From Giardia intestinalis (lineage: Eukaryota), in NCBI GenBank assembly GCA_000002435.2, contig CM018792.1: 64,000 nucleotides of DNA; one strand, given 5' to 3'. A program made the position numbers and the translations under genes. The notes beneath the pieces are model-generated. The model was not told the DNA's origin, did no database searches, and saw nothing but the letters and a program-made list of their open reading frames with translations. Below are positions 44,369 through 60,977 of the stretch, in pieces. Position 1 is the first letter of the stretch, and each line of letters begins with the position of its first letter.

Positions 44369-46096
44369 TCAAGTCTTCTGTGCATGCATTTTCTTTGCTC
44401 TTCGCAGCTTCAAGTTTTCTACCCTGATCCTTTTCAAACCGAAACCGAGGTGGACAATAGCAAGCAGAACAAAAACAGCAATGATTATAAATACAGTGAC
44501 GTAAACCATTGATGTGTCCGAGAAAACAAGCCGTTTGATCGGCATCGTGACGGAGATCCCTGACATGGGGTATGTGGCAGTGAAAAGTGCTTCTGTGAAG
44601 TGTCTAACAGCACCTATATTCCTATTCCGCTCTGATTGTTTGTATGAAGAAGTAAATGATTTCACTGCGGACTTACAGGATAGAATCCCCTCCACCTGCA
44701 CTGTGGCATAGTCATTACAGGTCCAGCACACAGAGTAATTTGCCAAAGAGAAGTAGTGGTTCTGGGTGAATGTGCCTAGGTCGGGTAGGGACAGACTCAA
44801 TGTGTATAGTAGGCTATACTTCAAGCTGATGGGGCACGTGTCAGATGTAGCGGAGGAAAAGTGGACACAGATGTCTGTGCTAGAAAAGGAAAGGTATGCG
44901 TCCTGCCAGCAGCCCAGCTGTTTATTGGTCACCTGCTGCTTGTAATAGAACGAAAGATCCCCGTTACTTCCTGTCTCTACTATTTCCAGAATTAGGATCA
45001 TAGAGTCCAAATTGGTTAGCCTAAATGCATTGGAAAGAAGCAACTTGCACGTCAGATCTCCATTGGCACATTGAAAGTCTATCGTTTGAGTATCTGAGAA
45101 GTTGAATGCAGAAAGTGAGATGCCCTCCATTGTGGCTTTTAAACCGGCATTAGTATAGAACAGATGGCAATTGAAGGCACGTTGCCCGTTGGCCAACACT
45201 TGGCAATCTTGGTTGCTAGGGTTGTTTGCTCCCTCAACAAGCATACGTATTCTATCTCCGTAGATTGATGCCGCGATAGACCTAGTACAGGAAGCCTTGG
45301 CTGAGCTATAAAGACTAAGAAGCTCCATTGATAAGGGAATTTCCACTGTTTTATCCTTCGCTGTACCTACCTTAATGGTGTAGTTTAGTTGAACGCTTAC
45401 CCAGGGATCTTTAACTGCCAAGAGGAGCGTGGTGAGCTGATCAGATGAAATGGTCGTCAACGGGAAGGTTAGATCTGCGGGCTGAATAGGTGGCTGCTTT
45501 ATATTGAAGGAGGTCGTTAGAATGAAGTTTCCGGCAGCATTTTTCACAGCCAGTGTGCCAGACACTACTTCTGGTTTAGCTGGATTATCACAGAGGCCTG
45601 TCTCAACGAGCTTGAGATTCCCCGATCCCGTTGTGTAGTCAAATGTGGCTAAGGATTGTGTCTCTGAGAAGCACTTTGTTAGATGCTCTCTGTTACCTGA
45701 TATGGATGCAAAGTTGACGTTGGCTCTGTAGCGAACGGTTTGAATGCAGAGTGATGCATACTCAGATGTGAAGAATGCCTCCATGCAGCGCTTTAGGACG
45801 ACATCGTCGGTCTGTGGACATGCAAAGGTGATTGTCTGGTCCATGGAATAATTGAAAGCACTTACGGAGGCAATGATCGTCTCATTGAACTTAGAAATAT
45901 TCAAGTGCATAGACACAGAGTCTGTGAATACCTTACAAGCAATGAGCATGGTGGGGGTAATTGTAACACTAATACTGGCTGTTGGGATGTCATAGATAAC
46001 TTCACTGAAGGGAGACCAACAATTGTGGACTTCCTCCTGCTCGACCCCGCCTCCAAGAAGAGGCCACAGCAGGCCCCCGATGACCAGTGTTGCCAT
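44369..46096 (-). CDS. Hypothetical type-I membrane protein (signal peptide plus C-terminal TM)
   Basis: The track's start at 46111 is a GTG. The first ATG, at 46096, gives MATLVIGGLLWPLLGGG. C-terminal TM VYVTVFIIIAVFVLLAIVHLGFGL followed by a basic tail KRIRVENLKLRRAKKMHAQKT. No family recognised. Confidence 0.5.
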   Translation of the reverse strand: MATLVIGGLLWPLLGGGVEQEEVHNCWSPFSEVIYDIPTASISVTITPTMLIACKVFTDSVSMHLNISKFNETIIASVSAFNYSMDQTITFACPQTDDVVLKRCMEAFFTSEYASLCIQTVRYRANVNFASISGNREHLTKCFSETQSLATFDYTTGSGNLKLVETGLCDNPAKPEVVSGTLAVKNAAGNFILTTSFNIKQPPIQPADLTFPLTTISSDQLTTLLLAVKDPWVSVQLNYTIKVGTAKDKTVEIPLSMELLSLYSSAKASCTRSIAASIYGDRIRMLVEGANNPSNQDCQVLANGQRAFNCHLFYTNAGLKATMEGISLSAFNFSDTQTIDFQCANGDLTCKLLLSNAFRLTNLDSMILILEIVETGSNGDLSFYYKQQVTNKQLGCWQDAYLSFSSTDICVHFSSATSDTCPISLKYSLLYTLSLSLPDLGTFTQNHYFSLANYSVCWTCNDYATVQVEGILSCKSAVKSFTSSYKQSERNRNIGAVRHFTEALFTATYPMSGISVTMPIKRLVFSDTSMVYVTVFIIIAVFVLLAIVHLGFGLKRIRVENLKLRRAKKMHAQKT

Positions 46097-46126
46097 CTCA
46101 GCAAAGAGCACAGGAGGTTTATTTAT

Positions 46127-49100
46127 TCAAAACTGGTATCTGTGCCTTCGTCGAGCGGCCTCGGCAGCGTCAGCTTCGCGTTTCCGATGAGCCAGCACGG
46201 ACTCCCTTTCTAGGCGGAGAAGCTCGTTGCCGCGGACTTGGGCGACTTCGACCTCACAGTCTCTATCGTATTGCCCAATATAGCTTGTGCCCTGGAATAT
46301 TGTGACAGCCTCGCCCAGTGACTTTACAAGCCCTTCTGAACGGCTTATGACAGATTTTGATAGGAGCTTCAGGTCATTCCGCAGCCCAGCGTCTCTCTTG
46401 ATCGTCTGCTCCAAAAGAGGAACCGTGTGGAGCAGAAAGGTCTGCGCCCATTCCATGCCAGCGCTAATATATGGAGTTTCTCGAACAAACTGTGCCAACA
46501 TTGTTATGAATTTCCGATAGTGCTTGGAATTTAAAAGCTGTATTGTGTGTAAAATGATCCTCTCAATGTCGGCTTTTAATTTAGACGCTTTATAGATGGT
46601 TGTTATGTAAAGCTCAAACAACTCCTTGTTGTGCAAAATCATGGCAATCTGAAGCCCATGGGCCAGACACGGTATGTTGTTATGATCAAATTTCTCCATT
46701 CTAAGAGAGCCGGACACGATACTGTTTGCGTGCTCTCTCTCGTAGCAATCTAAAATGATCCCTGCTGAAGTAGCCACTGTCACCTCAATTCCTAGATCAG
46801 CTATGTCTATATACCTGTTGTACTTGGTAGTCTCCCTAGTGTACTCCAATGCTCCAAAGGGCGTAAGGGCCAAGAAGCGCATTCCATCCGGAGAGACACA
46901 GAGGTCAATCACTCGTGCCTCCAGCCGCTTTCCAGTGACCTCCTGAAGCGAGTCAACGACTCTCCGTGACTCACGGTCCCGTATCTTTGTCAATTGCACA
47001 AGGCTGCGGACGGCCATGCCGGCCTCGTCATCACTGGAGTCTGAAATATGCTTGTCAAGTATCTCACGTGTATTCTTATCCAGAATGTCTCTCTTTCTAA
47101 CACCAGCTATGCCCTTATCGATGGTGATCTGATACTTTCCCACAAGTGTGTATGGCCATGTCTTGTATAAATACACGATTATGTACTTGGAGTCTCCAGC
47201 GCAAATAAGGAAGTCACCCACGATGCAGAAGTTCTTGCACGCTTTCCCATAAGAGCTTGACATATAGTGTCTATGTTCATCGTCTTTGAACCCACCAAGT
47301 ATGTCTCTCCCAACGTTAAATACTCCCGTTTGCTCTCCACCTTCCACGCTCCATATGGTGATCCTTCCGTTACTTGTCGAGGTCAAGAGCTGCAACCCGT
47401 CGGGGGTGAAGTCGACTTGCAACACCTCCACACCCTCGGGTAAGATCTCACACGGGATACTCGGTGAGAAGGTGCTCCATACACGCGTTGTTCCATCCCA
47501 GCTACTGCTTGCAAGCTCTCCTGTCCCCAAGGGTGAAAAGCTGAGAGACGTTATGGGACCTGTGTGGCCAGACAGAACTTCCAAGAGCTTAGATGTGCGG
47601 AGCTGGAATAGATATATCTCAAAGTCTCCATCCGAGCATCCCACTGCTATTATGTCCCCGGAAGGCTCTACCGCCAGGGCAGAGAAAGACCTAATGATTC
47701 CGCGGCTAATTGAATTGGTTAGCGCATTCAGATCGTTTGCAATTATCCTTGTATTAATAGAAAGTTTCCGGAATGTCACTTTCTTGGTTAAGTCAAATGC
47801 AAAGACCAAACCGTCGGCGCCTGCAGAGATCAGCACGCGGCTTGTCTTACTGAATCGCACCTTTGTCACAGCCGCTAAGTGATTTGTTACAACAGCATAT
47901 GAGAAGCCAGAAGCAAGGTCATATACGTGCACGGCTCCATTGACACACCCTATGGCATAAAATTCACCATTTTCGGAAACATCTGCACAGGTCGTTTGAG
48001 GGGGCGGTACCTCCTGGATGACAAACGTCTCGGCCAGATAATCGAACACGCACAGCGAGTGATCGTGGCTGCAAGCCAACATTAAGTAGTTTTTGTAGAT
48101 ACATGCTGAAGTGATAGGGTATGTGCAGGCTTTGAGATTATGAATGTGCTTGAAGTGAGAGATACGGGAGCTTGACTTCGAGCACTGTTCGTTCCAGAGC
48201 AGAACGTCCTCCACCGATAGAGACTCTCGCTCAATAGCAAGCTTAAAATACAAGGTATCAAATGCATATAGGCTATAGTGGCCATCTGCAAAGCCCACTA
48301 CGATAGTCCCAGCAGATGGTGCAATGGATTGGGGGTCGTCATTGTTTCCTATCTCAAATCCTGCTGATAGGATGATTGCTGATGCCTGCTCCTCTGCTCT
48401 CTTTCTATCATACCCAGTGTATACTTTTTCTGGTTCGAGATTGTAATCAATCACCGGATTCTCGAGTAGCTTTGTTGTCTCCAGATTATCAATAGATATC
48501 TTATTCCCATCATGATCTATGATAAAGTTCTTGGCATCCTCAGTCTTGCTTTCATCGTCCTTTTCATCCGTATCGGACCGCTCCTGCTCCTTGTCATATA
48601 AAAGCCGCGTGTCTCTGAGGATGTCCCTTTTCTCAATTAGATGCCAGGCCCAGGCACTTGTGGCCTCCGGCGCTCCTGATTCCTCGCTCGATTCTTGCTC
48701 ATGTTCCTCATCTTCGTGGCCAGCTCCTGGGGCCCACACATTTAGAAAGCCCTTTCTCGAAACTGTCACTATACTATATGAAGGCAAGGTGCCCTTTGCA
48801 GCCCTCTCTAGGTCGACGTGCTCCAAGTTCACGTAGGTATCAATCATGTCTGCAATGCGCGACGTTGTTCCCTCCGAGAACTCTGTTTGAGTAGGGTCCT
48901 CACTATCTAACTCAATCCCTGTCACCTGCAACTTCATAAACTCATACAGACTCATCTGTGGGTTCTTTATAAACGAGCGAATGTCAAGCAAGGATCCACG
49001 CTGGGCTGCATCCTCCGTCACTGCCTGGATGCAGTAGGCATCAGAGGACCCTCCACTGTGGCCACCCAGGTGAGCTGTGCTGTAGTTCAGTACTAGGCGA

Positions 49101-49645
49101 AGAGGATGGGTGGGGTCGAGCACCGAGTAGCACTTAACGTTATTGGAGTTTCCAGCCACTACTAGAAATAGCTCATCAGGTGTGAAGCGCATAGACATCA
49201 CGCGCATGCCACATGGCACGGTAGTTATTAGCTCGAATTTGGAGGAGCTGAGTGTAGTCACTCCAGAGCGTAGATTCATCAGCGGGGTTGCCCACACATG
49301 AATTGACCTAGACGATGATACAGCTAGAATGGATCCATCAGAATTGAAGCAAAGAGCCTCAACTGGATACCCGAAGGCCATACGGCACAAACTCAAGCCA
49401 GACTCAACGGAAATAAGTGATCCGTTGTTACGGTTATCAACAGCAAAGATAAAGCGCTCATTGGCCGTGATGGTGAACCGCTTGAGCTTGTATCTGGCCT
49501 CGTATGGAAGTGTGATGGATGTTTTGGAAAAGGGGTTGATTGAGCGAATGCGATTGTGTGCTATCGTATATATGTCTCCACTGGCACAATGTATCTTTCC
49601 AGCCGTGTGAATATCTGTTAAAAGGTTGTTGAAAGAGTACGCCAT
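46127..49645 (-). CDS. PWP2: Periodic tryptophan protein 2 (PWP2/UTP1), WD40 SSU-processome component
   Basis: ATG verified at 49645. The N-terminal MAYSFNNLLTDIH...TLPYEARYKLKRFTITANERFIFAVDNRNNGSLISV aligns to PWP2 (KFAYRFSNLLGTVY...TLPLATRYNVKCVGLSPDGRLAIIVDEGG.ALLVSL). Multiple WD-like repeats, then a helical Utp12-type C-terminal domain. Confidence 0.8.
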   Translation of the reverse strand: MAYSFNNLLTDIHTAGKIHCASGDIYTIAHNRIRSINPFSKTSITLPYEARYKLKRFTITANERFIFAVDNRNNGSLISVESGLSLCRMAFGYPVEALCFNSDGSILAVSSSRSIHVWATPLMNLRSGVTTLSSSKFELITTVPCGMRVMSMRFTPDELFLVVAGNSNNVKCYSVLDPTHPLRLVLNYSTAHLGGHSGGSSDAYCIQAVTEDAAQRGSLLDIRSFIKNPQMSLYEFMKLQVTGIELDSEDPTQTEFSEGTTSRIADMIDTYVNLEHVDLERAAKGTLPSYSIVTVSRKGFLNVWAPGAGHEDEEHEQESSEESGAPEATSAWAWHLIEKRDILRDTRLLYDKEQERSDTDEKDDESKTEDAKNFIIDHDGNKISIDNLETTKLLENPVIDYNLEPEKVYTGYDRKRAEEQASAIILSAGFEIGNNDDPQSIAPSAGTIVVGFADGHYSLYAFDTLYFKLAIERESLSVEDVLLWNEQCSKSSSRISHFKHIHNLKACTYPITSACIYKNYLMLACSHDHSLCVFDYLAETFVIQEVPPPQTTCADVSENGEFYAIGCVNGAVHVYDLASGFSYAVVTNHLAAVTKVRFSKTSRVLISAGADGLVFAFDLTKKVTFRKLSINTRIIANDLNALTNSISRGIIRSFSALAVEPSGDIIAVGCSDGDFEIYLFQLRTSKLLEVLSGHTGPITSLSFSPLGTGELASSSWDGTTRVWSTFSPSIPCEILPEGVEVLQVDFTPDGLQLLTSTSNGRITIWSVEGGEQTGVFNVGRDILGGFKDDEHRHYMSSSYGKACKNFCIVGDFLICAGDSKYIIVYLYKTWPYTLVGKYQITIDKGIAGVRKRDILDKNTREILDKHISDSSDDEAGMAVRSLVQLTKIRDRESRRVVDSLQEVTGKRLEARVIDLCVSPDGMRFLALTPFGALEYTRETTKYNRYIDIADLGIEVTVATSAGIILDCYEREHANSIVSGSLRMEKFDHNNIPCLAHGLQIAMILHNKELFELYITTIYKASKLKADIERIILHTIQLLNSKHYRKFITMLAQFVRETPYISAGMEWAQTFLLHTVPLLEQTIKRDAGLRNDLKLLSKSVISRSEGLVKSLGEAVTIFQGTSYIGQYDRDCEVEVAQVRGNELLRLERESVLAHRKREADAAEAARRRHRYQF

Positions 49646-49681
49646 TAGTGCAATTAAAAATTACCTCCGGAGTTTTTTCAA

Positions 49682-50908
49682 ATGTCCCGCTCGTCTGCTT
49701 CTCTCTTCAACATTATTGCCTCTCCGGCGGTGACTCGCATCGCTCGCTTTATCCTCTCAAGCAATGAGAATCAATTTATCCATTTTTTCTCGGCGTTGTA
49801 TCCGGCTGGAGCTCCCCATACAGTCATCGCAAGATCTGTCGACGGGTCTCACTACGTCATCGACATGAAGGCCCGAAAGATCCACAATACGTTTGGCCGC
49901 AAAGAATTCCTTGCTGCCACAAACACCAACACCAAGCTTTGGTGCAGCATCGACCCGGCGAAAAATGCCATCTTCATCCGCGACTGGGAGGCCCCCAAGC
50001 TACTAATATACCAAGAATTCACTGACAGAGTTCCTGTCTCGATAGCTTTGTCCAAGGACTATGTGGCTATCGTCAGCGTGCCGTACAATAGAAAGCACCG
50101 CGGCAAGGATGGAATCTCCGCTGAGCAAATCCATGCGCTTCCTGATGCAGCTACCTCCTTAGACAACGTTGAAACAAGCTCAGTTGCTGGCTCCTTCACT
50201 AGCGATGGCCAGTCACTGGCCAACTTCACCGGCCACATTGCGAGCGTCGACGTTGCGTACGCTCTGACAAAGGAAGGGGCCCGCAAGGGGCTGCCTGATT
50301 TGGTCAATCGGCCGGGTGTTGAAAAGAGTACAGAGTCAGGTCTCCTCAATTTCACGATCAGTATATATCGGTTTAGGAAGCTAGAAAGTAAAGATGCACA
50401 CACCAAGTATGCCGGGCAGGTGGTCTCTAAGTGTGAACTAGTGCGCCAATCACACTTAGACTTCGCTGCATCTGGCATTATATCGACGGCGTTCGACCAT
50501 GCAGACAGCTCACAGCTCTACATTGCACTGCAGAGTGACGAGCTAATTACTCTCGACACCACAACAAACGAACTGTATCGCGAGACGACCGATGGATACC
50601 CTTGGGAAGTTTTGTCCGCAGGATACGGCAAGGAGTACAGCATCCGTGTCCCTGTGGCTGGAAGGCGCACACAAGCCATGAAACTTTCAGTGCCCATAAG
50701 CTGCTATGGCACATACGTGGTAAGTTCAAACCGCGAGTCGTCCACTTTATACAAAAATGGAGAGCCTATCATTGAGGGATTCCCACCAGCGACCTGTGTG
50801 TCGCCAGACTCTGCCTTTGTGTGGTTCTACCTCAACGGAGTCTTCTACGAGCTGGATCTTCACAAGCTCGCTGAGATGAAAGAGACAATCCAAATTAAGT
50901 GCCTATAG
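49682..50908 (+). CDS. Hypothetical protein, member of a two-gene paralogous family in this window (408 aa)
   Basis: ATG verified at 49682. Conserved blocks shared with 53404..55065, for example ...LWCSIDPAKNAIFIRDWEAPKLLIYQEF...DYVAIV... and C-terminal ...VPISCYGTYVVSSNRESSTLYKNGEPIIEGFPPATCVSP...VWFYLNGVFYELDL. Confidence 0.55.
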   Translation: MSRSSASLFNIIASPAVTRIARFILSSNENQFIHFFSALYPAGAPHTVIARSVDGSHYVIDMKARKIHNTFGRKEFLAATNTNTKLWCSIDPAKNAIFIRDWEAPKLLIYQEFTDRVPVSIALSKDYVAIVSVPYNRKHRGKDGISAEQIHALPDAATSLDNVETSSVAGSFTSDGQSLANFTGHIASVDVAYALTKEGARKGLPDLVNRPGVEKSTESGLLNFTISIYRFRKLESKDAHTKYAGQVVSKCELVRQSHLDFAASGIISTAFDHADSSQLYIALQSDELITLDTTTNELYRETTDGYPWEVLSAGYGKEYSIRVPVAGRRTQAMKLSVPISCYGTYVVSSNRESSTLYKNGEPIIEGFPPATCVSPDSAFVWFYLNGVFYELDLHKLAEMKETIQIKCL

Positions 50909-53173
50909 TTTTATTGCCCTCCTGCTGTTGGATCCTTTTGTGCTCTTATTTGTCCTTGCAACGTTACTCACGACGCCACTCGTTTTCTTCGGTATGTCCT
51001 GAGAAGAAACCTTAGATGAGACAGCCCGCTTTTCACTTCTGTCTAAAGAAATGCCTGAAGATCCTCCTAACTTCAGCTCTCGTGGATGCTCTGTTAGTAG
51101 ATCGGCAACGTCTTCCTTTACCTTGGTGGCTGCTCCGACCAAGTGCATTGGTGGTCTTCTCAGCTTCGATAAGGGTTTGAGAGGCTTTGAAAGCAGAGAC
51201 TCTAACCGGGCCCTAGAGATCTTTATTTGCTCAGAGAGCTCTTGAGAGACGGCCTGTGCTTCAGGGTTATTTGTAAATTCTCGAAAGTCCCCATCTGACT
51301 CATCCGAGGAACTATTAAAGTTCTTCTCGTCGCGACGCTTGTACGACTGTCTCCTCATAAAGCTCTGGTTTTCGACAAGAGCGTCTGCCGCCTTAGAGGC
51401 CGCAAGCCAGATGTGCTTGATGCTTTTTAGAATGTCACTCTGGATGTCAATAGCTGGAGGCATTGTCTTCTGGGTGTAGCCACACACAGATGCGATTTGG
51501 ACAAAGCGACTGTTGTCAGCTGGAGAAATCAGAGAGACTGCCATTCCCACATGCTTCTGGTCAGCGCCCGATTCCACCCGTGCTGCACGACCAACCCGGT
51601 GGATATGACTGGAGGTGGAGTCCGGGGCCGAATGCTGAATAACAAGCGATACATGGGGAATGTCAAGGCCTCGGGCGCACACATCTGTAGTGATTAGAAC
51701 GGTATCATCACGGTCACGGAGTCTGTCCACATTCTTATATCTCTGACGCTGAGGCATCGACGCATGTACACACCACGCGGAGATGCCAAGGAGCTGGAAT
51801 ATGGTCGTGAAGTTCTTAGCCTGATCAATAGTCTTTACAAAGATGATCGTGGGGTAACGATATCGGATCACGAGATACGCCATTAATACGCTTTTCTCCG
51901 CCTCATCAAACACGTGATTCCACAGTTCAAAAACAGCCTTATTAACGATACAATCTGGAGATATGTCAACAATGACCAATTTGCTGCCCGAAAAGCCTAG
52001 ATTGCTAAGAACCTTCAACCACGACATGTATATCTGCCGCTGGCTTTCGGTTACTGATGCGTTATCAGCTATTTCGAGCACGAGCGCCTTCTTCGATGAG
52101 CGAATAGCTCTGTCGAATTTGTTGTCCTTGCGAGAACCCCACTTCTTCTCCTTCCATGTTCTTCCTTGATTAGATGGCTGCCCTGTCTCCTCATCGGGCT
52201 CTGAAAACTTTATATTCCGCTCTCTGAGCAGCGATGGAAGGCTCATAGTTGCTGAGCTGATTGTGACTTTTGCTGTACAACCATCGACCACGGTGCTTGT
52301 GAGAGAGCTACACAAGTCTATGAGCTCATGAAACCGGCCCTTCTGAAGCATCTTATCTGACTCATCTATGACCAGTCTGTCTATCAAGCTGGTGTCGGCG
52401 AAGAACGCATTAGACCTTGAAATGTCATACAAACGGCCCGGGGTGCCCACTAGTATGAGGGGCCGCTCCCGTATGAAGCGCTCCTGCTTCTGGGGAGAGA
52501 TCCCGCCCACAATGGTGTACATTATGCGAAAACACTTCTGGATGTCCCCAAATATTGTTGTCATCACAGTATTGATCTGCGTGGCCAGCTCGCGTGTCGG
52601 TGCAATGATAAGGGTCTGCAAGGCTCGCCTCTGGGCCTGGTCTGGGCGCTTGAGGGCATTGGTCACCAGGGTAAATGCCTTGTGAAGTGCTGGGAGCAGA
52701 TATGCAAGGGTCTTCCCAGAACCTGTTTCAGCGGCGATGACAAGGGACTTGTTATGGAGGGCAGCCCTTATTGTCTGAGTCTGAATGGCGCGGGGCTTGG
52801 TATATCCTGCTCGCACCAAATACTTACAGAGAACAGGATGAAGGCCCAGTCTAACCCATTCATCTATGCCCTCAACGTCGGCAAGAGAGCATATTTCATC
52901 AACAAACTCCTGCTTGTAACTGTGATCAGCCATAACATTCAGCTCATCCTCAGGAAAACTCTGAAAAGCATTTGAATCCTCACTGCTCTCTGCAGAAGAT
53001 GCCTTCTGCGGGGAGCTCTTGGCCTTATCGAAGAGGTTCTGCTGAAAAAGCTCCTTATGGGAAATTGTCTCCAGACTGACGAGCCCAGAATGTATGTCTC
53101 CGTTCTGGAGCTTGAGTGACGGGTCGGGCCGCCACTTTGCCCGGTGGAGGATGGACGTCGCGACAGGCCTCAT
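50903..53173 (-). CDS. DEAD-box (DESD variant) ATP-dependent RNA helicase
   Basis: The track's start at 53197 is a TTG; the first ATG is at 53173. Q-motif region GYTKPRAIQTQTI. Motif I AAETGSGKT, Ia APTRELA, II VIDESD, III SAT, VI HRVGRAAR. Long Ser/Lys-rich C-terminal extension. Confidence 0.8.
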   Translation of the reverse strand: MRPVATSILHRAKWRPDPSLKLQNGDIHSGLVSLETISHKELFQQNLFDKAKSSPQKASSAESSEDSNAFQSFPEDELNVMADHSYKQEFVDEICSLADVEGIDEWVRLGLHPVLCKYLVRAGYTKPRAIQTQTIRAALHNKSLVIAAETGSGKTLAYLLPALHKAFTLVTNALKRPDQAQRRALQTLIIAPTRELATQINTVMTTIFGDIQKCFRIMYTIVGGISPQKQERFIRERPLILVGTPGRLYDISRSNAFFADTSLIDRLVIDESDKMLQKGRFHELIDLCSSLTSTVVDGCTAKVTISSATMSLPSLLRERNIKFSEPDEETGQPSNQGRTWKEKKWGSRKDNKFDRAIRSSKKALVLEIADNASVTESQRQIYMSWLKVLSNLGFSGSKLVIVDISPDCIVNKAVFELWNHVFDEAEKSVLMAYLVIRYRYPTIIFVKTIDQAKNFTTIFQLLGISAWCVHASMPQRQRYKNVDRLRDRDDTVLITTDVCARGLDIPHVSLVIQHSAPDSTSSHIHRVGRAARVESGADQKHVGMAVSLISPADNSRFVQIASVCGYTQKTMPPAIDIQSDILKSIKHIWLAASKAADALVENQSFMRRQSYKRRDEKNFNSSSDESDGDFREFTNNPEAQAVSQELSEQIKISRARLESLLSKPLKPLSKLRRPPMHLVGAATKVKEDVADLLTEHPRELKLGGSSGISLDRSEKRAVSSKVSSQDIPKKTSGVVSNVARTNKSTKGSNSRRAIKL

Positions 53174-53403
53174 TGAATTAATTCCATCGCGGACCAAGCA
53201 TTTGTGTAAAATTACTGCTAAAAGTGAAATTAATACAAAACACTTAGACCAAATCTACCAGGATGGCAATCCTCGAGCAATAGACGCGACTGGCTGACTG
53301 TCTTGCCATCAATATTCTGTACTCTAGCTACCGGACGGGCAGTGGAAGGACCGACGAGCACTGACATTCAAGCAATGACTGCGGAAAAATTCTAGATTAC
53401 AAA

Positions 53404-55065
53404 ATGGAATCTCCCTTAAAAACCGGCAGATTGGCTTCCGATGACGCAAATGTATTCTCACTGGTAGAACTGCTGGAGACAGATGCGGTCAAAATGCTTT
53501 GCGAATCCATGGTCATTGATAGACGGAACGATTTCATTAACTATTACACAACCTTATTTCCAACGCACATGGATCGTGTGATCATCGGGCAAACGCTTAG
53601 CGGCTCCCATAATGTGGTAAACCTGAACACGGGAACAGTTATCAACACGTTTGAGCGCCGCCAGGCCCTTTCGTCATTTTCTCACGACTCGCAGCTGTGG
53701 TGCGCCATTGACCCGCTGAGCCAGTCACTTTATCTCCGTGACTGGGCCATTCCGCGCCTCCTCATCTTCCATGAGTTCCAAGATCACCTTGTGCTCAGCA
53801 CTGCACTGATGCAGGACTACATAGCGATCATTTACACCAAGCTTCCACCAGCAAAGAGGGCCAAGTCTTCGGGGAAAGCTTCTTCAAAGACATGTCTTAG
53901 CCGGGCAACAAGCGACCATGATATACAAGCCAATGACCCTGAGTCCGAGGTCAAGACGTTCGCAGATCACGGTGACAACATGGACGATGGGGCTATCGGG
54001 GACCTAAGAGACTCTGACCTGGACACCGCGCAGATTCCTGAGAAAGATGTCGATCCAGGGTTCTTAAGCAGAAGCCTTAGCCAACTGAATGTTATCAGTA
54101 ACACCGCGGGAGATCTTACCAGCGTGGAGCTGAACGATGACTCCGATGATTCGGAGAGCTCTGAACACTTAAAGAATTATACTTCTATGAGTCTTGCTAG
54201 AGACCGTGACTACATGCTCTCGTGTAGAAACACACTTGATAGTAAGCTGTCTACCCGTAAGCAAGGTGGCAGCCCCGTTGCTACCTCAATGGACGGGACC
54301 TCGTCCAAAGGAGAGGTATCATCGCTGAGTGACCAGCACAGGCTGGTGTCTACTGTCCCCCTATCGATTAATCAGAGTCCCCTTCTTTCCCAAAGTGCAA
54401 CCCTTTCCTTCCTTGACAGAGAGGAGGTCAGAACTCCTGTGGACCAGCTGACCCCTAATAAGAGCATAGAGCCCGAGTTCACCGTTAACATATATCGCAT
54501 AAACAAGAGCGTGCACGGAAACACTTTTACGGCTCCGTACTCCCTTGATAGGGTGGTGAGTCAGCGCCTCCGTGGATCGGTTGTGCTGGGAAGCTATTTC
54601 GAAACCGATCAAACACGCCTATATATTGTCATGCCCAATTACGAAATGTATATTATGGACCTAATTACATACGAAACAGAGTTTGTAAAAACGACTGCTT
54701 ATCCCCAACGCTTCGGACTAGGGCATGCAGGCGGAGAGTATCGCTTCACAATCTCATCAACAGGAAAAAATTTGAAACTGAGCACTCCGATAAGCACATA
54801 TGGGCAGTACATACTGACCTCAAACAAAGAATGTAGCACGGTCTATCGCAATGAAAAGGTCTACATTGAGGGGCTTCCGCCTGCAGCCTGTCTCAGCCCT
54901 AAGAAGCCAGTTGTTTGGTTTTACATAAGCGGGAGGTTTTGCGAGCTTAACTTATTAAAAGTCAAACGTAACCAAAGAACCCTAATACTTAAGACGAATG
55001 CAAGGGGCCAGATGCCAACTAATTCTAAAATTTCTAAACCGGCTATTGCTTATAAGGTAAAGTAA
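53404..55065 (+). CDS. Hypothetical protein, paralogue of 49682..50908 with a long acidic/Ser-rich insertion (553 aa)
   Basis: ATG verified at 53404. Shares ...LWCAIDPLSQSLYLRDWAIPRLLIFHEF...DYIAII... and C-terminal ...TPISTYGQYILTSNKECSTVYRNEKVYIEGLPPAACLSP...VWFYISGRFCELNL with 49682..50908. The central region of about 180 aa is D/S-rich low complexity. Confidence 0.55.
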   Translation: MESPLKTGRLASDDANVFSLVELLETDAVKMLCESMVIDRRNDFINYYTTLFPTHMDRVIIGQTLSGSHNVVNLNTGTVINTFERRQALSSFSHDSQLWCAIDPLSQSLYLRDWAIPRLLIFHEFQDHLVLSTALMQDYIAIIYTKLPPAKRAKSSGKASSKTCLSRATSDHDIQANDPESEVKTFADHGDNMDDGAIGDLRDSDLDTAQIPEKDVDPGFLSRSLSQLNVISNTAGDLTSVELNDDSDDSESSEHLKNYTSMSLARDRDYMLSCRNTLDSKLSTRKQGGSPVATSMDGTSSKGEVSSLSDQHRLVSTVPLSINQSPLLSQSATLSFLDREEVRTPVDQLTPNKSIEPEFTVNIYRINKSVHGNTFTAPYSLDRVVSQRLRGSVVLGSYFETDQTRLYIVMPNYEMYIMDLITYETEFVKTTAYPQRFGLGHAGGEYRFTISSTGKNLKLSTPISTYGQYILTSNKECSTVYRNEKVYIEGLPPAACLSPKKPVVWFYISGRFCELNLLKVKRNQRTLILKTNARGQMPTNSKISKPAIAYKVK

Positions 55066-55173: not shown

Positions 55174-56757
55174 ATGGTTGTAATCCGCATTCAAACTCCC
55201 GAGGGCCAAATAAGGGCAAATATGGAGAGCACTGCTACTGTGAAAGACCTCTTCCGCGAGATCAGCAATATGCTTTCGCTGTCCTTGAAGGACGTTGCAA
55301 ACGCTCTGTACTTTGACGTCAAGTATACTAACCTGGTTTATTCCCACGACATCCATTCAGCAGACCTATTATCTAAGCACTCATCTCTGCAGCATGGCGC
55401 CCTTTTATATTTGAAGATGGAGCGAGATTTGGGGAGCGATAGTGACAGTGACAGTGATAGCGTAAGCCCGGAGGCCTTGTTCCGCAACATCATGTCTCTT
55501 AAGGATCTCCCTCGTCCCCCAACAAAAGGGAAGCACTGTACACACGACTCTACCATGCGATGCACACGCTGCTACATGGAGTGGGAGGATGCGTTTCTCA
55601 AGTACATAGGGAAGACTCGCGAGGACCTCCAGATGAATGAGCACATCAGGGCCAGCGAAACTGACGCTATGGATGCGGCAGCGGCAGCCTTCGATCCGTG
55701 GTCTACATCTCCGGATTCGAAGTCGGGGACGCACAGTCCTCGAAAGGGCCTACAAAGCTATCAGAGCGTGAATAATATCCAGCACCTTAAAGATAACATA
55801 ACCAAGTTCCAGCTGAATATTGAGCGCCAGAAAAAGGCGCTGGTTGCGTGCCTTTCTGTGTCGGAAACGCAGATGATGGAGGTGCGCAAGCTGGTGGAGG
55901 AATCAATGTATAACCGGAACTTTTACGGAGTCATGTACGGCCGCTATGAATACCTTTCGGAGGCTAACAGGCTCGAGGCTAACGTGTTCATAGAGTGGAT
56001 CTACATCCCACCTCAGGAGTGCATAGCTGGGACCGTCGTTGTACTGTCGGACCCGTGCAGCAAAGCAAAGAATAAAGCGGCTGAGAAAATTGCCAATGCA
56101 TTTGGCTTAATAAACATGGGCCACACCTTCACCCATTTTAACGATCGCGGCTTTATCCTGTCTGGAGCCGAGATAGGCTCGCTTGCTGTGCGGACGGCAA
56201 AGTTAGAGGCCCGTGGCGCTGAGCACGCCAAGTTTATGACAAACTTGCGCGGCTGTATCGACAAGACCCGCAAAGAGTTAGTTCTCGACGCTTTTGCAGC
56301 ATCGCGACAGCTTGTGAACCTCGCGCGTAACAACATCCTCGTCGAAAACAAGGTGGAGGACCCTGGCAACTTTGTTCGCTTCAGTGAAAAGCAGATCTTT
56401 GAACTTAAGGCATCTGAGTTGGTGGATGCTGTATGTTTTCTTGTTCCCGTGGCTGTCACGACACACAAGGATATCATCACCACGATGAAGACCAAGATAT
56501 GCTCATCAGACTTTCCGAGCCTGGGGAGTCCCTGCCCACCGACTCTGCACGACGTCGCCAGCTATATCTCTATCCATAAGTCACAGAAGCTGAGTGAGGT
56601 ATATGCCAATTGTAACTACCTAGTTTATCTTACTGACATTATCTCTATTGAGGAGGTCATAATGTTGATAGATTTGATAAAGAGGGGTGCGCCTAATGAG
56701 TCATTTGAAGAAATTGATAATATCATAAAGGGAACGGTGAATGCAACCCTCGTGTGA
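55174..56757 (+). CDS. NPL4: NPL4 (Cdc48/p97 cofactor)
   Basis: ATG at 55174 follows tgagaatttaaaaattaaaagggtggcaggaccATG. N-terminal ubiquitin-like MVVIRIQTPEGQIRANMESTATVKDLFREI (NPL4 MIIRVQSPDGVKRITATKRETAATFLKKV). Zinc-finger region KHCTHDSTMRCTRC. MPN-like NFYGVMYGRYEY...NVFIEWIYIPPQ (NPL4 HFGYLYGRYTEH...AAIYEPPQ). Confidence 0.8.
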   Translation: MVVIRIQTPEGQIRANMESTATVKDLFREISNMLSLSLKDVANALYFDVKYTNLVYSHDIHSADLLSKHSSLQHGALLYLKMERDLGSDSDSDSDSVSPEALFRNIMSLKDLPRPPTKGKHCTHDSTMRCTRCYMEWEDAFLKYIGKTREDLQMNEHIRASETDAMDAAAAAFDPWSTSPDSKSGTHSPRKGLQSYQSVNNIQHLKDNITKFQLNIERQKKALVACLSVSETQMMEVRKLVEESMYNRNFYGVMYGRYEYLSEANRLEANVFIEWIYIPPQECIAGTVVVLSDPCSKAKNKAAEKIANAFGLINMGHTFTHFNDRGFILSGAEIGSLAVRTAKLEARGAEHAKFMTNLRGCIDKTRKELVLDAFAASRQLVNLARNNILVENKVEDPGNFVRFSEKQIFELKASELVDAVCFLVPVAVTTHKDIITTMKTKICSSDFPSLGSPCPPTLHDVASYISIHKSQKLSEVYANCNYLVYLTDIISIEEVIMLIDLIKRGAPNESFEEIDNIIKGTVNATLV

Positions 56758-56774
56758 CGCTCGTCGCAAGTCTG

Positions 56775-59700
56775 CTAATAGAGCTCCTCAGTGCAGAGAG
56801 TTTCTAGTGTAGCGTCTCCATTACGCTCATATGCTGTGCCAGCAGAACCTGGTGACCCCGCCAGGAGCGGCCGGCGGATTATGATGTGCACGCGTATTCG
56901 CGGGTCTTCGAATGTGAGATAAGATGGGAGCTTTGGAGAGCCTACGAAGTACTGGATTTGATCATTGTGAAGCGAACAAAGCATGTCGTGAGCTACCTTC
57001 TCGAACTTATCGTCGAGGCCCTGGTTTATCTCATCTACGAGCCTGAACCTGATGGAGCTCAGTGCCTTCTGGCCATATAGTGAATTGACAAGACAGAGAG
57101 CTACCACCGAGCTCTCTCCGCCAGAAAGAGTGATGCCTGTTAGTGTTTCGTTGGCAACGAACTGCGTCCTGAGCTCTAGGCCTGGCTTTAGGGAAGTCAT
57201 AAGCGGTACTATGGCTTGGATTTGGGGCTCCTTGACTACGGGTTTGAATGCCTTTGACAGGGCAATGAGCTGGCTCTCCTGGACTTCGTTTGTCAAGAAG
57301 GTAGACAAAGATACTCTGGCAGATAAAATGTGCTTGCTCTTTTGATACTTCCTTGAGAACATATCTACTGATGCATCGCTCGCTCGACTCGCTCGGGTAT
57401 CTTGCTTGTGATGGTGTGTATCACTGTCGGAAGACTCGTCGGATACATCGAGGTCAAGGTATGATGCTTGCTTCAACTTGTCGAGAAAAGGCTCCAGCTT
57501 TAACATAAGAATAGAGCCATCTTCACTAGCTTTTCGCTGAACGTAGCTGGCCGTCCTCTTAGCGCTAGGCTCCGCTGGCTCAGTGTTAGCAATAGAATTT
57601 TCTGACGCTGCTGTGCTGCTTTCTGAGTCGTTGCCCTCGTCCCCGGTTTTCTGGCCATTCAACACTAGTGCAGTATATGAATCTATTTCTAATGTATTAC
57701 TAGTAGATGAAATGGATACTGCTTTTAAGGAAGGATTCTCTATCAGGAAGGCGGTGAACTTATCCATTTCAAAGCAGCGTCGATGGTCCCCATCGTACTC
57801 CTTAAGAAGCGCATGTGCTGCGTCAAACTCTGGTGAGACTACGGATGCATTTCTCCTTCTGTCTGAGGTAAAAAGACCCGTGAGTACTGCCTCTCCGGAG
57901 ATTCCGAACTCCCTTATGTTATCTCCAAATCGTTTGCTCACCTCTGCTATCACCTCAGCTACGCTATCTTGAACTGTGCGGATCACCTCAAGCAAACGGA
58001 AAAGGTGGACAAGTATATACGCATTTGACGCAAACCTGTCACTTAGAAAGTCGCAAAACTTTTTCTTTTCCGTTAGAAAGGTATCTTTGATCGATTGGTC
58101 TTGCTTGGATTGCTGCAACTTAAACCTGTTCTCCAGATTATTGACAAAGGCTTTGAAACATGTTAAATCCACGGTATATGGGCTGGTAAGGTCCATTGCC
58201 GAAGCCTGTAGCTTTGCAGACGCAACGTGCTTTGTCAACTCTTTGGCAAATTCTCTGTGTGTTAAAAGATATGGAACTGTTGTTTCCAGCGACGAAGAGT
58301 CGCAAGGACTTTCAAGGGGAGGGTCAGGTGCCATGTCTGGACAGAGTACCTTTAGGATTGATAGTATGCGGCTCTTTCTGACCCTAAATACGTCCTCGAT
58401 ATTGCCTAACGTATTCTCTCTAAAGACACTGGCCCGCTTTTGTGCTAATTGATGCTCATCTTGCGCAGATGTCAAACTGATATTAAGATCATTCCCCCTT
58501 TTGTGGAGGTCTTTGACCTGTGTGGCAAGAGGTATAAGAACTTGAATATCAGCGAGCCTTGCTTTACTCTGGGCCAGTGCAGAAATGGCCGACGTGCTCA
58601 GTAAGTTGGACATATCTGTGTATGCATTTTCGGCGGCAAGGATGTCTTGTTCTGTGACGACTTTATAAGTTTTCATCCTGGCATCTAGGGTGTTGAGCTC
58701 CGAGCGACACTCACGCAGCAATTGATTAGTCTCAGTTAGCTTGACTCTGCTTTGGTTCATAAATAACTTAAGCTCCTCCATGCGTGATCTCGCTGCCTGA
58801 ATGCTATCGCTGTACGAGTCCTGCAGCTCTTTGACCTCCTTTTCAACGGCTCTCTTGTCTTCTAGAATCTTGTGCATAAACCGTGGATATCTCATTTGTT
58901 CTGCATAGCCTTGAACACATTCAGCATATGCCCTAGTAGGGTCAAGACCGTACGACGTGCGGGCCAGGAGCTGCCTCTGGTTATTAGACGTCCCGATATG
59001 CAGCATTCCATCATGACATAAGATGTTGAAGGTGCCCACATTAGACTCCATGAATCGGATGATCTCAGCATTTGTTAGCTTGGACCCTGATGAAGATTGG
59101 ACATACACTGCGACACTTAGCTTCTGGAAAAAGTGATTCAGTACGATGGGGTTTCCATCTAGGCAATCTATTAGAAACGCGATGTTAGCCATGGCGGATG
59201 CTTGTACTGAGGACCCCGACGCCGAAAGAGTTCTAATACCCGCCGTGTTGATGGTCTTAGTCTTTAGTGAAGCATATTGGTTTTCCAGCTCTCGATTAGC
59301 GCGATTGTATGCTTCTTGGTAATCCATCTCGAGATAATCTTGAAGGAGCTCGATGGTGGTTGCGCCGCCTCTATCCCTGTACTGATCAAATCTCCTACTA
59401 AGGTTTGATTGGTGTTCTATTGAGTTGGTTAGTACAGTATACAAGGATTGGCCGAGGGCGGATTGAAGCATGAACTTAACAATATTAAAAGGAATTGGCG
59501 TATCCGATTTTATGCCTATCCACTTTGCTATGGGAACAAATAAAAAATATCGCATTGAGCTATCAAGCTCTAACTCAAGAGAGGCCTGGTAGATATCTGC
59601 AAGCCAGCTATAATGGGGCAGACTCCTACATTGAAGCACCAGCTGCTCTCGCTGTTCTCGTTCATCTTCTATCTGCTGATGTCTGACCATCGCATCCTTA

Positions 59701-60938
59701 TATTCGGTCGACGCATATAGTGATGATGCTTCAAAGTTCATGTTGCATAGTGCTACTGACGCCTCTGACCTCTTTGCTTCGAGTTCGCTGATGGAGGTTT
59801 CATACTCGTGAATCTGGTCATTCAGCGAATTGATTCGCTGTTGTAGAGCGAGGTGATCCTCATCAGATTGGCTTTGTTTTTGGGTGATAGCTGCTTCATA
59901 TGCTGATTGGAGGTCAAGAAGCCGCTTTGAATTTGCTGTAATAGTTCGAGATAACCGCTCTAGCGAAACTATGGAACTTTTCATGACAGTAAACCTCCTC
60001 TCCATCTCTTCTGTTACCCGTTGTACTTCAAGCTGGGTCTTCTCAATGTCTCTCTTCAGGGTAATTAGTGGCTCTTCCTTTGATTGCATGTCGCTCACTA
60101 GTTTCTTGTATTCATGCAGTGTCTTGGTTCGCTCTGTGTTGACTTCTAGAAATTCTAACACTAACAAAGCCTGCCGGCCTAAATTGACGGTTTGCTTCAA
60201 GGATCCTAGCTCTATAATCTTCATTGCATTCTGTACCATTTTTAGAAAGTCGTCGTGCTTACTAATGTAGGAGGTCTCAAAGGTTTCGCGTGCGGCTCGG
60301 CAGAAACTCATTAAGGACATGGCCTGTGGCTGAAGGCTTTCCAGTGTATTGGTCAGATCGGGGAAAATAAGATCAAGGAACTTAATTAATCGCTCGCTGG
60401 GTGTCATCAGAGTTAGTCTCTGAGCATCAGATTGCATCATCGATTGGAAAGGGTTGTCTACCTGGATTTCAAAGTTCTTTCTTATGTCTCTGCATAGCTT
60501 ATCTTGCGTAATTGCCCTCCCATTTGCGTAGAATTGCACGTGCTTGCCTCTTTTCAATAGTACGTGTACAGTATAAATAGATTCATGCGTCAATCTACTC
60601 AGTACATAATTGTGTGTCTTGTGGCAAAACACGTCGGTAACTTTGGTAAACAGATTGTGGGCGTCTGGCACTGATAGCTTGCTAACATTGCAGATGGTCA
60701 CCAAAGCACATGAAAATAACTGATGCTCTTGTATCAATGAGTCTGTATCGCACAGATCTGGATGCCGCGATCCTAGACAAAGCGCCACCGCATAGAGGAG
60801 CGTGGTCTTACCAAAGCCATTAGGGGCGACAAAATAGTTGACGGTAGGGAGGGCGTATACTCTGGCGTGTCCAACACCTCTAAAGTGGTAGCATTCAATG
60901 CCAATAATCTGCCCAGAGGAAAAGCTGGGCTGCTCCAT
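56775..60938 (-). CDS. SMC5: SMC5-type structural maintenance of chromosomes protein
   Basis: The track's start at 61043 is a GTG; the first ATG is at 60938 (MEQPSFSSGQIIGIECYHF...). Walker A FVAPNGFGKTTLLYAVALCLG. The C-terminal LSGGESSV...FRLVDEINQGLD...QYFVGSPKL matches the SMC5-specific QSGGERSV...FRVVDEINQGMD...QYFFITPKL, unlike Rad50 (DEPTTNLD) or SMC6 (DEFDVFMD). Long coiled-coil arms. Confidence 0.8.
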   Translation of the reverse strand: MEQPSFSSGQIIGIECYHFRGVGHARVYALPTVNYFVAPNGFGKTTLLYAVALCLGSRHPDLCDTDSLIQEHQLFSCALVTICNVSKLSVPDAHNLFTKVTDVFCHKTHNYVLSRLTHESIYTVHVLLKRGKHVQFYANGRAITQDKLCRDIRKNFEIQVDNPFQSMMQSDAQRLTLMTPSERLIKFLDLIFPDLTNTLESLQPQAMSLMSFCRAARETFETSYISKHDDFLKMVQNAMKIIELGSLKQTVNLGRQALLVLEFLEVNTERTKTLHEYKKLVSDMQSKEEPLITLKRDIEKTQLEVQRVTEEMERRFTVMKSSIVSLERLSRTITANSKRLLDLQSAYEAAITQKQSQSDEDHLALQQRINSLNDQIHEYETSISELEAKRSEASVALCNMNFEASSLYASTEYKDAMVRHQQIEDEREQREQLVLQCRSLPHYSWLADIYQASLELELDSSMRYFLFVPIAKWIGIKSDTPIPFNIVKFMLQSALGQSLYTVLTNSIEHQSNLSRRFDQYRDRGGATTIELLQDYLEMDYQEAYNRANRELENQYASLKTKTINTAGIRTLSASGSSVQASAMANIAFLIDCLDGNPIVLNHFFQKLSVAVYVQSSSGSKLTNAEIIRFMESNVGTFNILCHDGMLHIGTSNNQRQLLARTSYGLDPTRAYAECVQGYAEQMRYPRFMHKILEDKRAVEKEVKELQDSYSDSIQAARSRMEELKLFMNQSRVKLTETNQLLRECRSELNTLDARMKTYKVVTEQDILAAENAYTDMSNLLSTSAISALAQSKARLADIQVLIPLATQVKDLHKRGNDLNISLTSAQDEHQLAQKRASVFRENTLGNIEDVFRVRKSRILSILKVLCPDMAPDPPLESPCDSSSLETTVPYLLTHREFAKELTKHVASAKLQASAMDLTSPYTVDLTCFKAFVNNLENRFKLQQSKQDQSIKDTFLTEKKKFCDFLSDRFASNAYILVHLFRLLEVIRTVQDSVAEVIAEVSKRFGDNIREFGISGEAVLTGLFTSDRRRNASVVSPEFDAAHALLKEYDGDHRRCFEMDKFTAFLIENPSLKAVSISSTSNTLEIDSYTALVLNGQKTGDEGNDSESSTAASENSIANTEPAEPSAKRTASYVQRKASEDGSILMLKLEPFLDKLKQASYLDLDVSDESSDSDTHHHKQDTRASRASDASVDMFSRKYQKSKHILSARVSLSTFLTNEVQESQLIALSKAFKPVVKEPQIQAIVPLMTSLKPGLELRTQFVANETLTGITLSGGESSVVALCLVNSLYGQKALSSIRFRLVDEINQGLDDKFEKVAHDMLCSLHNDQIQYFVGSPKLPSYLTFEDPRIRVHIIIRRPLLAGSPGSAGTAYERNGDATLETLCTEELY

Positions 60939-60977
60939 GAGAGCCGTGGCTTCAGTGTCAAAAGCTTTTAATGAATA

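Follow-up and report, generated by a model that had tools for sequence, protein, structure and literature searches.

A lineage-restricted pair of paralogous genes around a DEAD-box helicase gene in Giardia duodenalis, most likely encoding WD40-like beta-propeller proteins

Two genes of Giardia duodenalis WB, both annotated only as hypothetical, stand on either side of a DEAD-box helicase gene, and their arrangement raises the question of whether they are related to each other, what they encode, and whether they have anything to do with the genes that they adjoin. The window analyzed here is a stretch of 64,000 nucleotides (nt) of contig CM018792.1 (assembly GCA_000002435.2). Gene A, our shorthand for GL50803_94654 (49682..50908, plus strand, 408 amino acids), is the short paralogue, and gene B, GL50803_3007 (53404..55065, plus strand, 553 amino acids), is the long one; the start codon of A faces that of a PWP2 homologue, and the start codon of B faces that of the helicase gene. 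The reading that we favor, at a probability of roughly 60%, is that A and B are old paralogues confined to one lineage, that they encode soluble WD40-like propeller scaffolds, and that their positions beside these neighbors have no functional meaning.

That A and B are true paralogues of one family is clear from their alignment. Both open reading frames (ORFs) exist on the plus strand as a first-pass annotation of the window had delimited them, and BLASTP aligns their products in two collinear blocks, the first joining residues 7–161 of A to 19–173 of B (31% identity, E 8e-30) and the second joining 224–406 of A to 359–530 of B (34% identity, E 1e-29). The best alignment scores 108 bits, whereas 200 shuffles of B give 17.4 +/- 2.1 and at most 25.8. 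The motifs from which the relationship had been proposed, LWC.IDP......RDW..P.LLI..EF near the N-terminus and YG.Y...SN.E.ST.Y.N......G.PPA.C.SP....VWFY..G.F.EL.L near the C-terminus, are recovered in both proteins, and the final 60 residues of A and B are 55% identical. The identities quoted in the first-pass annotation were a little generous: the N-terminal block is there, but in place of about 45% over some 100 residues we measured 33% over 129 and 36% over 107, with 48% reached only in a core of 48 residues. No third copy of the family was found in the window.

The two blocks are separated in each protein by a central region of different character. The conserved N-terminal block of A (residues 7–135; 49700..50086, plus strand, as are all segments of A and B given here) corresponds to residues 19–147 of B, at 33% identity (E 8e-30 for the BLASTP block), and has about ten predicted beta-strands within residues 36–134. 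The linker that follows (residues 136–221; 50087..50344) is modeled as disordered, with a predicted local distance difference test score (pLDDT) below 50, and carries motifs common to both paralogues; its ratio of nonsynonymous to synonymous substitution rates (dN/dS) is 0.052. No part of the family is better conserved than the C-terminal block of A (residues 222–406; 50345..50899; E 1e-29 for the BLASTP block), with about 14 predicted strands, and this block alone can be aligned to the single metagenomic relative described below (32% identity, E 3e-11). In B, the N-terminal block (residues 19–147; 53458..53844) is 94% identical between assemblages, with a dN/dS of 0.019, and the C-terminal block (residues 358–530; 54475..54993) has a dN/dS of 0.043.

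The central region of B (residues 149–356; 53848..54471) is expanded, acidic, and rich in Ser and Thr: 17% of its residues are Ser and 12% Asp, its isoelectric point is 4.7, it contains ten S/TxxD/E motifs of the CK2 type, and it is predicted to be disordered (pLDDT below 50). Two conserved islands lie in it. The first (residues 221–275; 54064..54228), which includes DDSDDSESSEHLKNYTSMSLARDR, shows 80% identity between assemblages and a dN/dS of 0.057, and can be aligned in part to residues 175–195 of A; the second (residues 316–357; 54349..54474), PLSINQSPLLSQSATLSFLDREEVRTPVDQLT, shows 74% identity between assemblages, and its P, N, P, and S positions are common to residues 205–216 of A. The linkers that flank the islands are 47% identical between assemblages. 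The linker of A is 86 residues long, and about 11 of its positions (D175, L179, N181, T183, D190, Y193, L195, P205, N209, P211, and S216 in A numbering) are invariant in all eight family sequences. B had been described as carrying an acidic, Ser-rich insertion of about 180 residues; the composition is as described, but A has its 86-residue linker at the same place, the net difference is about 120 residues, and the middle of B is no clean insert, its growth lying in the stretches between motifs conserved in both paralogues.

A and B are genuine, transcribed genes, because both bear the mark of purifying selection, both have transcripts in four isolates, and peptides of A occur in two proteomes. 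Measured against the contig of a divergent assemblage (L005), A has a dN/dS of 0.037 and B one of 0.083, values comparable to those of the helicase gene (0.060) and the NPL4 homologue (0.045); dS in this comparison is saturated, at approximately 1.4–1.9, so these ratios are approximate, but their low values indicate strong purifying selection on both genes. Within G. duodenalis, dN is 0.062 for A, lower than the 0.087 of the helicase. A and B have four-way orthologues in WB, AS175, P15, and GS, with expression values in the four isolates, in fragments per kilobase per million mapped reads, of 39/116/17/79 for A and 77/96/37/196 for B (Franzén et al. 2013, PMC3610916, Table S1 for the orthologues). 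Peptides of A were detected in an organelle fraction enriched for encystation-specific vesicles (ESVs), with spectral counts of 1/1/1 (Wampfler et al. 2014, PMC3986054), and a single peptide in a quantitative proteome (Emery et al. 2018, PMC5913674); neither dataset contains peptides of B. Among searchable main texts, the gene identifiers appear only in that of Wampfler et al. (2014), and they are missing from the supplements examined for two papers, one on the G. muris genome and one on encystation RNA-seq. The literature searched holds no localization or interaction record for either protein.

How far does this family extend? An exhaustive search with hmmsearch of 1.84 billion representative proteins returned four matches: an A-type cluster, a B-type cluster, and two further proteins. 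One of the latter, P0026, is a 978-residue protein made of 18 identical tandem copies of a 54-residue unit, and its E value of 5e-24 is an artefact of summed weak repeat scores. The other, P0027 (47.8 bits), is a real remote relative, encoded on a JGI metagenome contig (L001, from 3300010163; 2.8 kb, 58% GC) in a frame that is open from the first base; a low-complexity Ser/Gly tract stands ahead of its C-terminal 140 residues, which align to A at 32% identity (E 3e-11). When A and B served as queries in word-index homology searches, only G. duodenalis orthologues came back, and two scans of metagenomes, one queried by the family alignment and the other by the L001 protein, yielded no further relatives. 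To judge from these searches, the family is restricted to the G. duodenalis complex and one remote environmental relative, as the first-pass annotation had supposed in calling it lineage specific and of unknown function. The metagenomic contig itself (positions 1–2772) is compact and coded on one strand, with a 218-residue ORF resembling a coiled coil and the beginning of a superfamily-2 helicase, and no Giardia-type poly(A) signal is found at its stop codons. The helicase-like fragment, which lies 1.1 kb downstream, was considered as a sign of conserved linkage and rejected, because it has only the Walker A region in common with the helicase of the window (E 3e-5 over 40 residues) and a motif I of PTGTGKT; it is not orthologous to that helicase.

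The locus was then compared across Giardia lineages. The window and three divergent G. duodenalis lineages (L005, L006, and L007) have one and the same order, PWP2 (minus), A (plus), helicase (minus), B (plus), NPL4 (plus); all three lineages keep a 6-bp overlap between A and the helicase gene, and their orthologues are 85–88% identical to A and 73–77% identical to B. Since both genes occur in all of these lineages, the duplication is old and preceded the split of the G. duodenalis assemblages. One predicted A orthologue, P0003 (L006 3840–5468, 542 residues), bears an N-terminal extension of 134 residues that is a gene-caller artefact running through PWP2; the real protein has 408 residues.

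The picture is different in G. muris (L002, CM016929.1) and in a muris-like lineage (L003) whose helicase is 82% identical to that of G. muris. In both, the helicase orthologue (46–47% identical to that of the window) is followed directly by PWP2, at a distance of 15–22 bp (15 bp in G. muris), and the +/-10 kb around the helicase–PWP2 locus contain no family member. In G. muris the place of B, between NPL4 and the helicase gene, is taken by VSP-like, Sec23/24-like, and small ankyrin genes. A search of all six-frame ORFs of these two loci and of a third divergent locus (L004) with hmmsearch --max likewise found no member. Because A evolves no faster than the helicase, which is still 46% identical in G. 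muris, an A orthologue there should have been easy to detect in the search of the protein library; that none was found indicates that the family was either gained on the way to G. duodenalis or lost on the way to G. muris. The arrangement around the helicase is thus not kept in G. muris or the muris-like lineage. The idea of a functional link between each copy and its divergent partner is not supported, since a helicase gene and a PWP2 gene that adjoin each other without the family show that these partners work without it.

As to how the pair arose, a local duplication is plausible. Both genes lie on the plus strand, with starts 3.7 kb apart and 2.5 kb between the genes, and the helicase gene is the only one between them. 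Neither copy is present at the site in the G. muris clade, and a single-copy intermediate is not seen there. Similarity of flanking DNA between the copies is not to be expected, because the proteins themselves are only 32% identical.

The first-pass annotation had proposed a shared beta-rich fold as a point to check, and the structural models agree with it. AlphaFold2 gave all-beta models for A (mean pLDDT 50, predicted template modeling score 0.48) and B (mean pLDDT 40, score 0.40), with about 24 short strands within the two conserved blocks and an unstructured central region. Foldseek matched the models exclusively to WD40-type propellers, at E values of about 1e-8 and sequence identities of 6–16%; the matches include WDR26, WDR91, spatacsin, COP1, WDR5, Sec12, and PREB, and no one propeller subfamily stands out among them. 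By the marks of the class, repeated four-stranded antiparallel sheets set radially as blades and superposition on known propellers over most structured residues, the low-confidence models count as beta-propellers. On the strength of these models, A and B most likely fold as a WD40-like beta-propeller, A being then the short paralogue of a propeller family that is an orphan in sequence.

Sequence profiles give a contrasting view. No WD40 or other propeller model of Pfam matched any of six family members at E <= 10, no Pfam match at this threshold was both recurrent and meaningful among all members searched, and PDB sequences gave only chance-level matches with A, B, or the family profile. A seven-bladed YncE propeller model of NCBIfam matched weakly (E 7e-4, 18.5 bits against a cut-off of 400). 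Alignment of the family profile with that of PWP2 orthologues, the one WD40 protein compared, gave an hhalign probability of 0.4% (E 0.14), on which we reject an origin of the pair by partial duplication of the neighboring PWP2 propellers. Compared with established WD40-repeat propellers (the Beta_propeller clan, with WDR5, RACK1, WDR91, and Utp-type proteins), A and B thus lack the WD40 signature at the curated thresholds of Pfam and NCBIfam, show no profile likeness to PWP2, share little sequence with their structural matches, and are confined to one species complex and one environmental sequence. With neither a Pfam match of this kind nor a likeness to PWP2, the propeller fold does not make the similarity between A and B a trivial one.

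Both proteins are soluble, with neither a hydrophobic segment nor a signal peptide. The maximum hydropathy over 19 residues on the Kyte–Doolittle scale is 1.28 in A and 1.19 in B, in both cases in beta-strand regions away from the C-terminus, and A has been listed with no transmembrane (TM) segment and no signal peptide (Wampfler et al. 2014, PMC3986054, Table S2).

If the models are right, the N-terminal and C-terminal blocks would together build a single propeller of six or seven blades, from which a flexible loop bearing short conserved motifs would emerge between the blocks. Like other propellers that are not enzymes, A and B most likely act as platforms for the binding of other proteins. 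The best-conserved surface would be formed by the last two blades, with the motif TPIS...Y(K/R)N....IE.(F/L)P.A...S....F..(N/S)G.F, which is all that the metagenomic relative has in common with the pair, and this surface is the likely partner-binding site. The loop of B would have grown into an acidic, Ser/Thr-rich region, probably phosphorylated and a plausible target of acidophilic kinases, which would give the long copy a regulated or an additional mode of binding. The positions of the two genes, around the helicase gene and opposite PWP2, would reflect where the copies landed in a very compact genome and not a function held in common.

Several points weigh against this account. Both models are of low confidence and were built from alignments of only seven to eight closely related sequences, which leaves the number of blades, the closure of the propeller, and the placement of the loop uncertain. 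The scaffold role, the binding surface, and regulation by phosphorylation are drawn from the fold class, the pattern of conservation, and the general behavior of propellers; no phosphorylation records were found for B; and the absence of the family from G. muris rests on the annotated proteome in the searched library together with synteny over +/-10 kb.

Other explanations have to be set beside it. Sec12, one of the structural matches, is a type II membrane protein with a paralogue, Sed4, in yeast, and Sec12/PREB is the exchange factor for Sar1. The presence of Sec12, PREB, and WDR91 among the matches could mean that the family serves the secretory pathway of encysting and growing cells, as a cytosolic propeller accessory at endoplasmic reticulum exit sites or ESVs with a role like that of Sec13/Sec31-type or Rab-effector (WDR91-type) propellers. 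A, listed as Gl94654, is among 72 ESV-enriched candidates, beside Sec13 and Vps11 (Wampfler et al. 2014, PMC3986054), and this detection weakly hints at such a pathway. However, its counts of 1/1/1 in ESV fractions compare with 1/0/0 in peripheral vesicle (PV) fractions, it was not localized in that study, the same ESV list includes many ribosomal and cytosolic contaminants, and B went undetected (Wampfler et al. 2014, PMC3986054). The match to Sec12/PREB is no better than those to dozens of unrelated propellers, the whole set being what any other WD40 propeller might give, no sequence similarity to Sec12/PREB was found, and neither A nor B has the hydrophobic C-terminal anchor that Sec12 needs. 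A secretory role is in our judgment unlikely.

Giardia proteins are often extremely diverged, and the family might accordingly be the orthologue of some conserved eukaryotic propeller (a nucleoporin, for instance, or another component that seems to be "missing" from Giardia) that has diverged too fast for its relatives to be recognized from sequence. The remote relative outside G. duodenalis (P0027 on L001; 47.8 bits, 32% identity) fits this view, as does the classification of Gl94654 as "not Giardia-specific," although the homologue is not named (Wampfler et al. 2014, PMC3986054). Within G. duodenalis, however, the family is not fast-evolving, dN being lower for A than for the helicase; it is missing from the syntenic sites and from the library in G. 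muris, a species in which the helicase, PWP2, and NPL4 are recovered with ease; and no profile of Pfam, NCBIfam, or PDB gives even a consistent weak match. Hidden orthology of this kind seems to us improbable.

Several of these elements can be joined in a more elaborate proposal, which we consider decidedly speculative. The family would have been gained after the split from G. muris, or precisely lost there, and the copies would have come to lie in two intergenic sites around a conserved helicase gene. They could act as alternative or heterodimeric scaffold subunits, one constitutive and the other switched by phosphorylation of its expanded acidic loop, in a process specific to the species complex, for example the biogenesis of encystation vesicles, and the unusually long 3' untranslated region (UTR) of A could couple the expression of A to that of the helicase.

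The small-subunit processome holds about twenty propellers, which are therefore frequent among generic propeller matches. One could suppose from such matches, and from the head-to-head arrangement, that A and B are tied in function to their divergent partners, for instance as highly diverged single-propeller subunits or assembly factors of the processome, co-expressed with those partners from shared bidirectional promoters. We consider this highly improbable. G. muris and the muris-like lineage keep the helicase and PWP2 genes adjacent without the family nearby or in the protein library, and a sister species could not do without an essential processome factor; subunits of the processome and its UTP propellers are conserved across eukaryotes, and the A/B family is not. 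Propellers from outside the processome (WDR26, WDR91, spatacsin, COP1, and WDR5) score equally well, a ribosome-biogenesis role is unproven for the helicase itself, and four expression values are too few to show co-regulation. Last, horizontal transfer into the G. duodenalis lineage once it had parted from G. muris, followed by local duplication, would account for the absence of the family from the syntenic sites of G. muris and for the 58% GC of the only contig with an outside relative, but it is very hard to credit when the 1.84 billion representatives include no bacterial, archaeal, or viral relative, the L001 protein carries low-complexity Ser/Gly tracts of a eukaryote-like kind and shows a GC content at third codon positions (GC3) within the range of G. 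muris-like loci, and loss in the G. muris lineage fits the data equally well. GC3 of the pair itself (0.59 for A and 0.54 for B, other genes of the window not being compared) provides no compositional argument for or against transfer.

The surroundings of the pair are as compact as short head-to-head spacers, the norm in the Giardia genome, would lead one to expect. A is separated from the start codon of the PWP2/Utp1 homologue GL50803_94653 (46127..49645, minus strand; annotated "Periodic tryptophan protein 2-like"; E 1e-55 to PWP2/Utp1 chains) by an AT-rich spacer of 36 bp (49646..49681), and B from that of the helicase gene (50903..53173, minus strand; Pfam DEAD and Helicase_C; G. muris orthologue 46% identical) by a spacer of 230 bp (53174..53403), both spacers being read directly from the sequence; neither neighbor belongs to the family. 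The layout, with A and B on one strand flanking an oppositely oriented DEAD-box gene, is therefore as the first-pass annotation described it. Its further statement that each copy is head-to-head with a ribosome-biogenesis gene holds for the orientation and for PWP2, but for the helicase such a role is not established: assignment to a subfamily from PDB matches failed, Prp28/DDX23, CshA, Has1, and eIF4A all matching at E 1e-30 to 1e-33. The helicase probably starts at the ATG at 53173, which fits the sequence context and gives 756 residues, 100% identical to a database protein (P0028), whereas the ORF list had a TTG at 53197 and 764 residues. Its DEAD (residues 137–319) and Helicase_C (residues 444–541) domains are separated by an unusually long insert of about 125 residues (residues 320–443; window 51577–52237).

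At their 3' ends A and B differ. The stop codon of B, upstream of the NPL4 homologue, is covered by an AGTAAAT poly(A) signal. A and the helicase gene overlap tail-to-tail by 6 bp, and no AGTRAAY signal occurs within 500 nt of the stop codon of A. The mapped 3' UTR of A is 375/375/288/237 nt long in four isolates, compared with 9–11 nt for B (Franzén et al. 2013, PMC3610916). Given the overlap, the lack of a nearby signal, and the long mapped 3' UTR, the mRNA of A should extend in antisense across the 3' coding end of the helicase gene (window 50903–51283), with a sense–antisense interaction as a possible consequence. A and B resemble other lineage-specific pairs of hypothetical Giardia genes in several respects: they lack introns and are tightly spaced, their initiator spacers are AT-rich, the poly(A) signal of B sits at its stop codon, their neighbors stand head-to-head or overlap them tail-to-tail, and they have four-way orthologues. 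They differ in their demonstrable paralogy, in a fold that can be inferred, and in bracketing a conserved gene that is bare of both in G. muris.

Some features farther from the pair may be recorded. A GC-rich stretch at 28–32 kb (GC 0.55–0.58) corresponds to a variant-specific surface protein (VSP) gene at 29393–31603 (Pfam VSP, E 3e-57), which is followed by a MYND zinc-finger gene at 31763–33412. Downstream of PWP2, an ORF of 580 residues (44369–46111, minus strand) without a Pfam match ends in a hydrophobic segment and a basic tail, and may encode another lineage-specific membrane protein; G. muris has at this place a gene for 1,667 residues, also without Pfam matches. On the other side, the neighborhood has been rearranged between the two species: a SHIPPO-repeat gene adjoins NPL4 in G. 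muris (L002 1–10000), and in G. duodenalis (window 55174–62831, and L007) SMC-like and ankyrin-RING genes lie between NPL4 and the SHIPPO gene.

Protist genomes commonly contain orphan beta-propellers and old local duplicates, and the family is an unnamed addition to a very well-known structural class, so that the finding is otherwise an ordinary one. For the annotation of compact genomes it means that head-to-head neighbors should not be read as functional partners unless comparison between lineages supports it. In the one Giardia proteome examined for this point, about 40% of the organelle-fraction candidates are "hypothetical" proteins (Wampfler et al. 2014, PMC3986054). Here two blank annotations become a testable hypothesis, that of a pair of soluble propeller scaffolds, one of them with a probable phospho-regulated loop, and the family, by its contrast with G. 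muris, becomes a candidate for biology peculiar to the species complex that infects humans.

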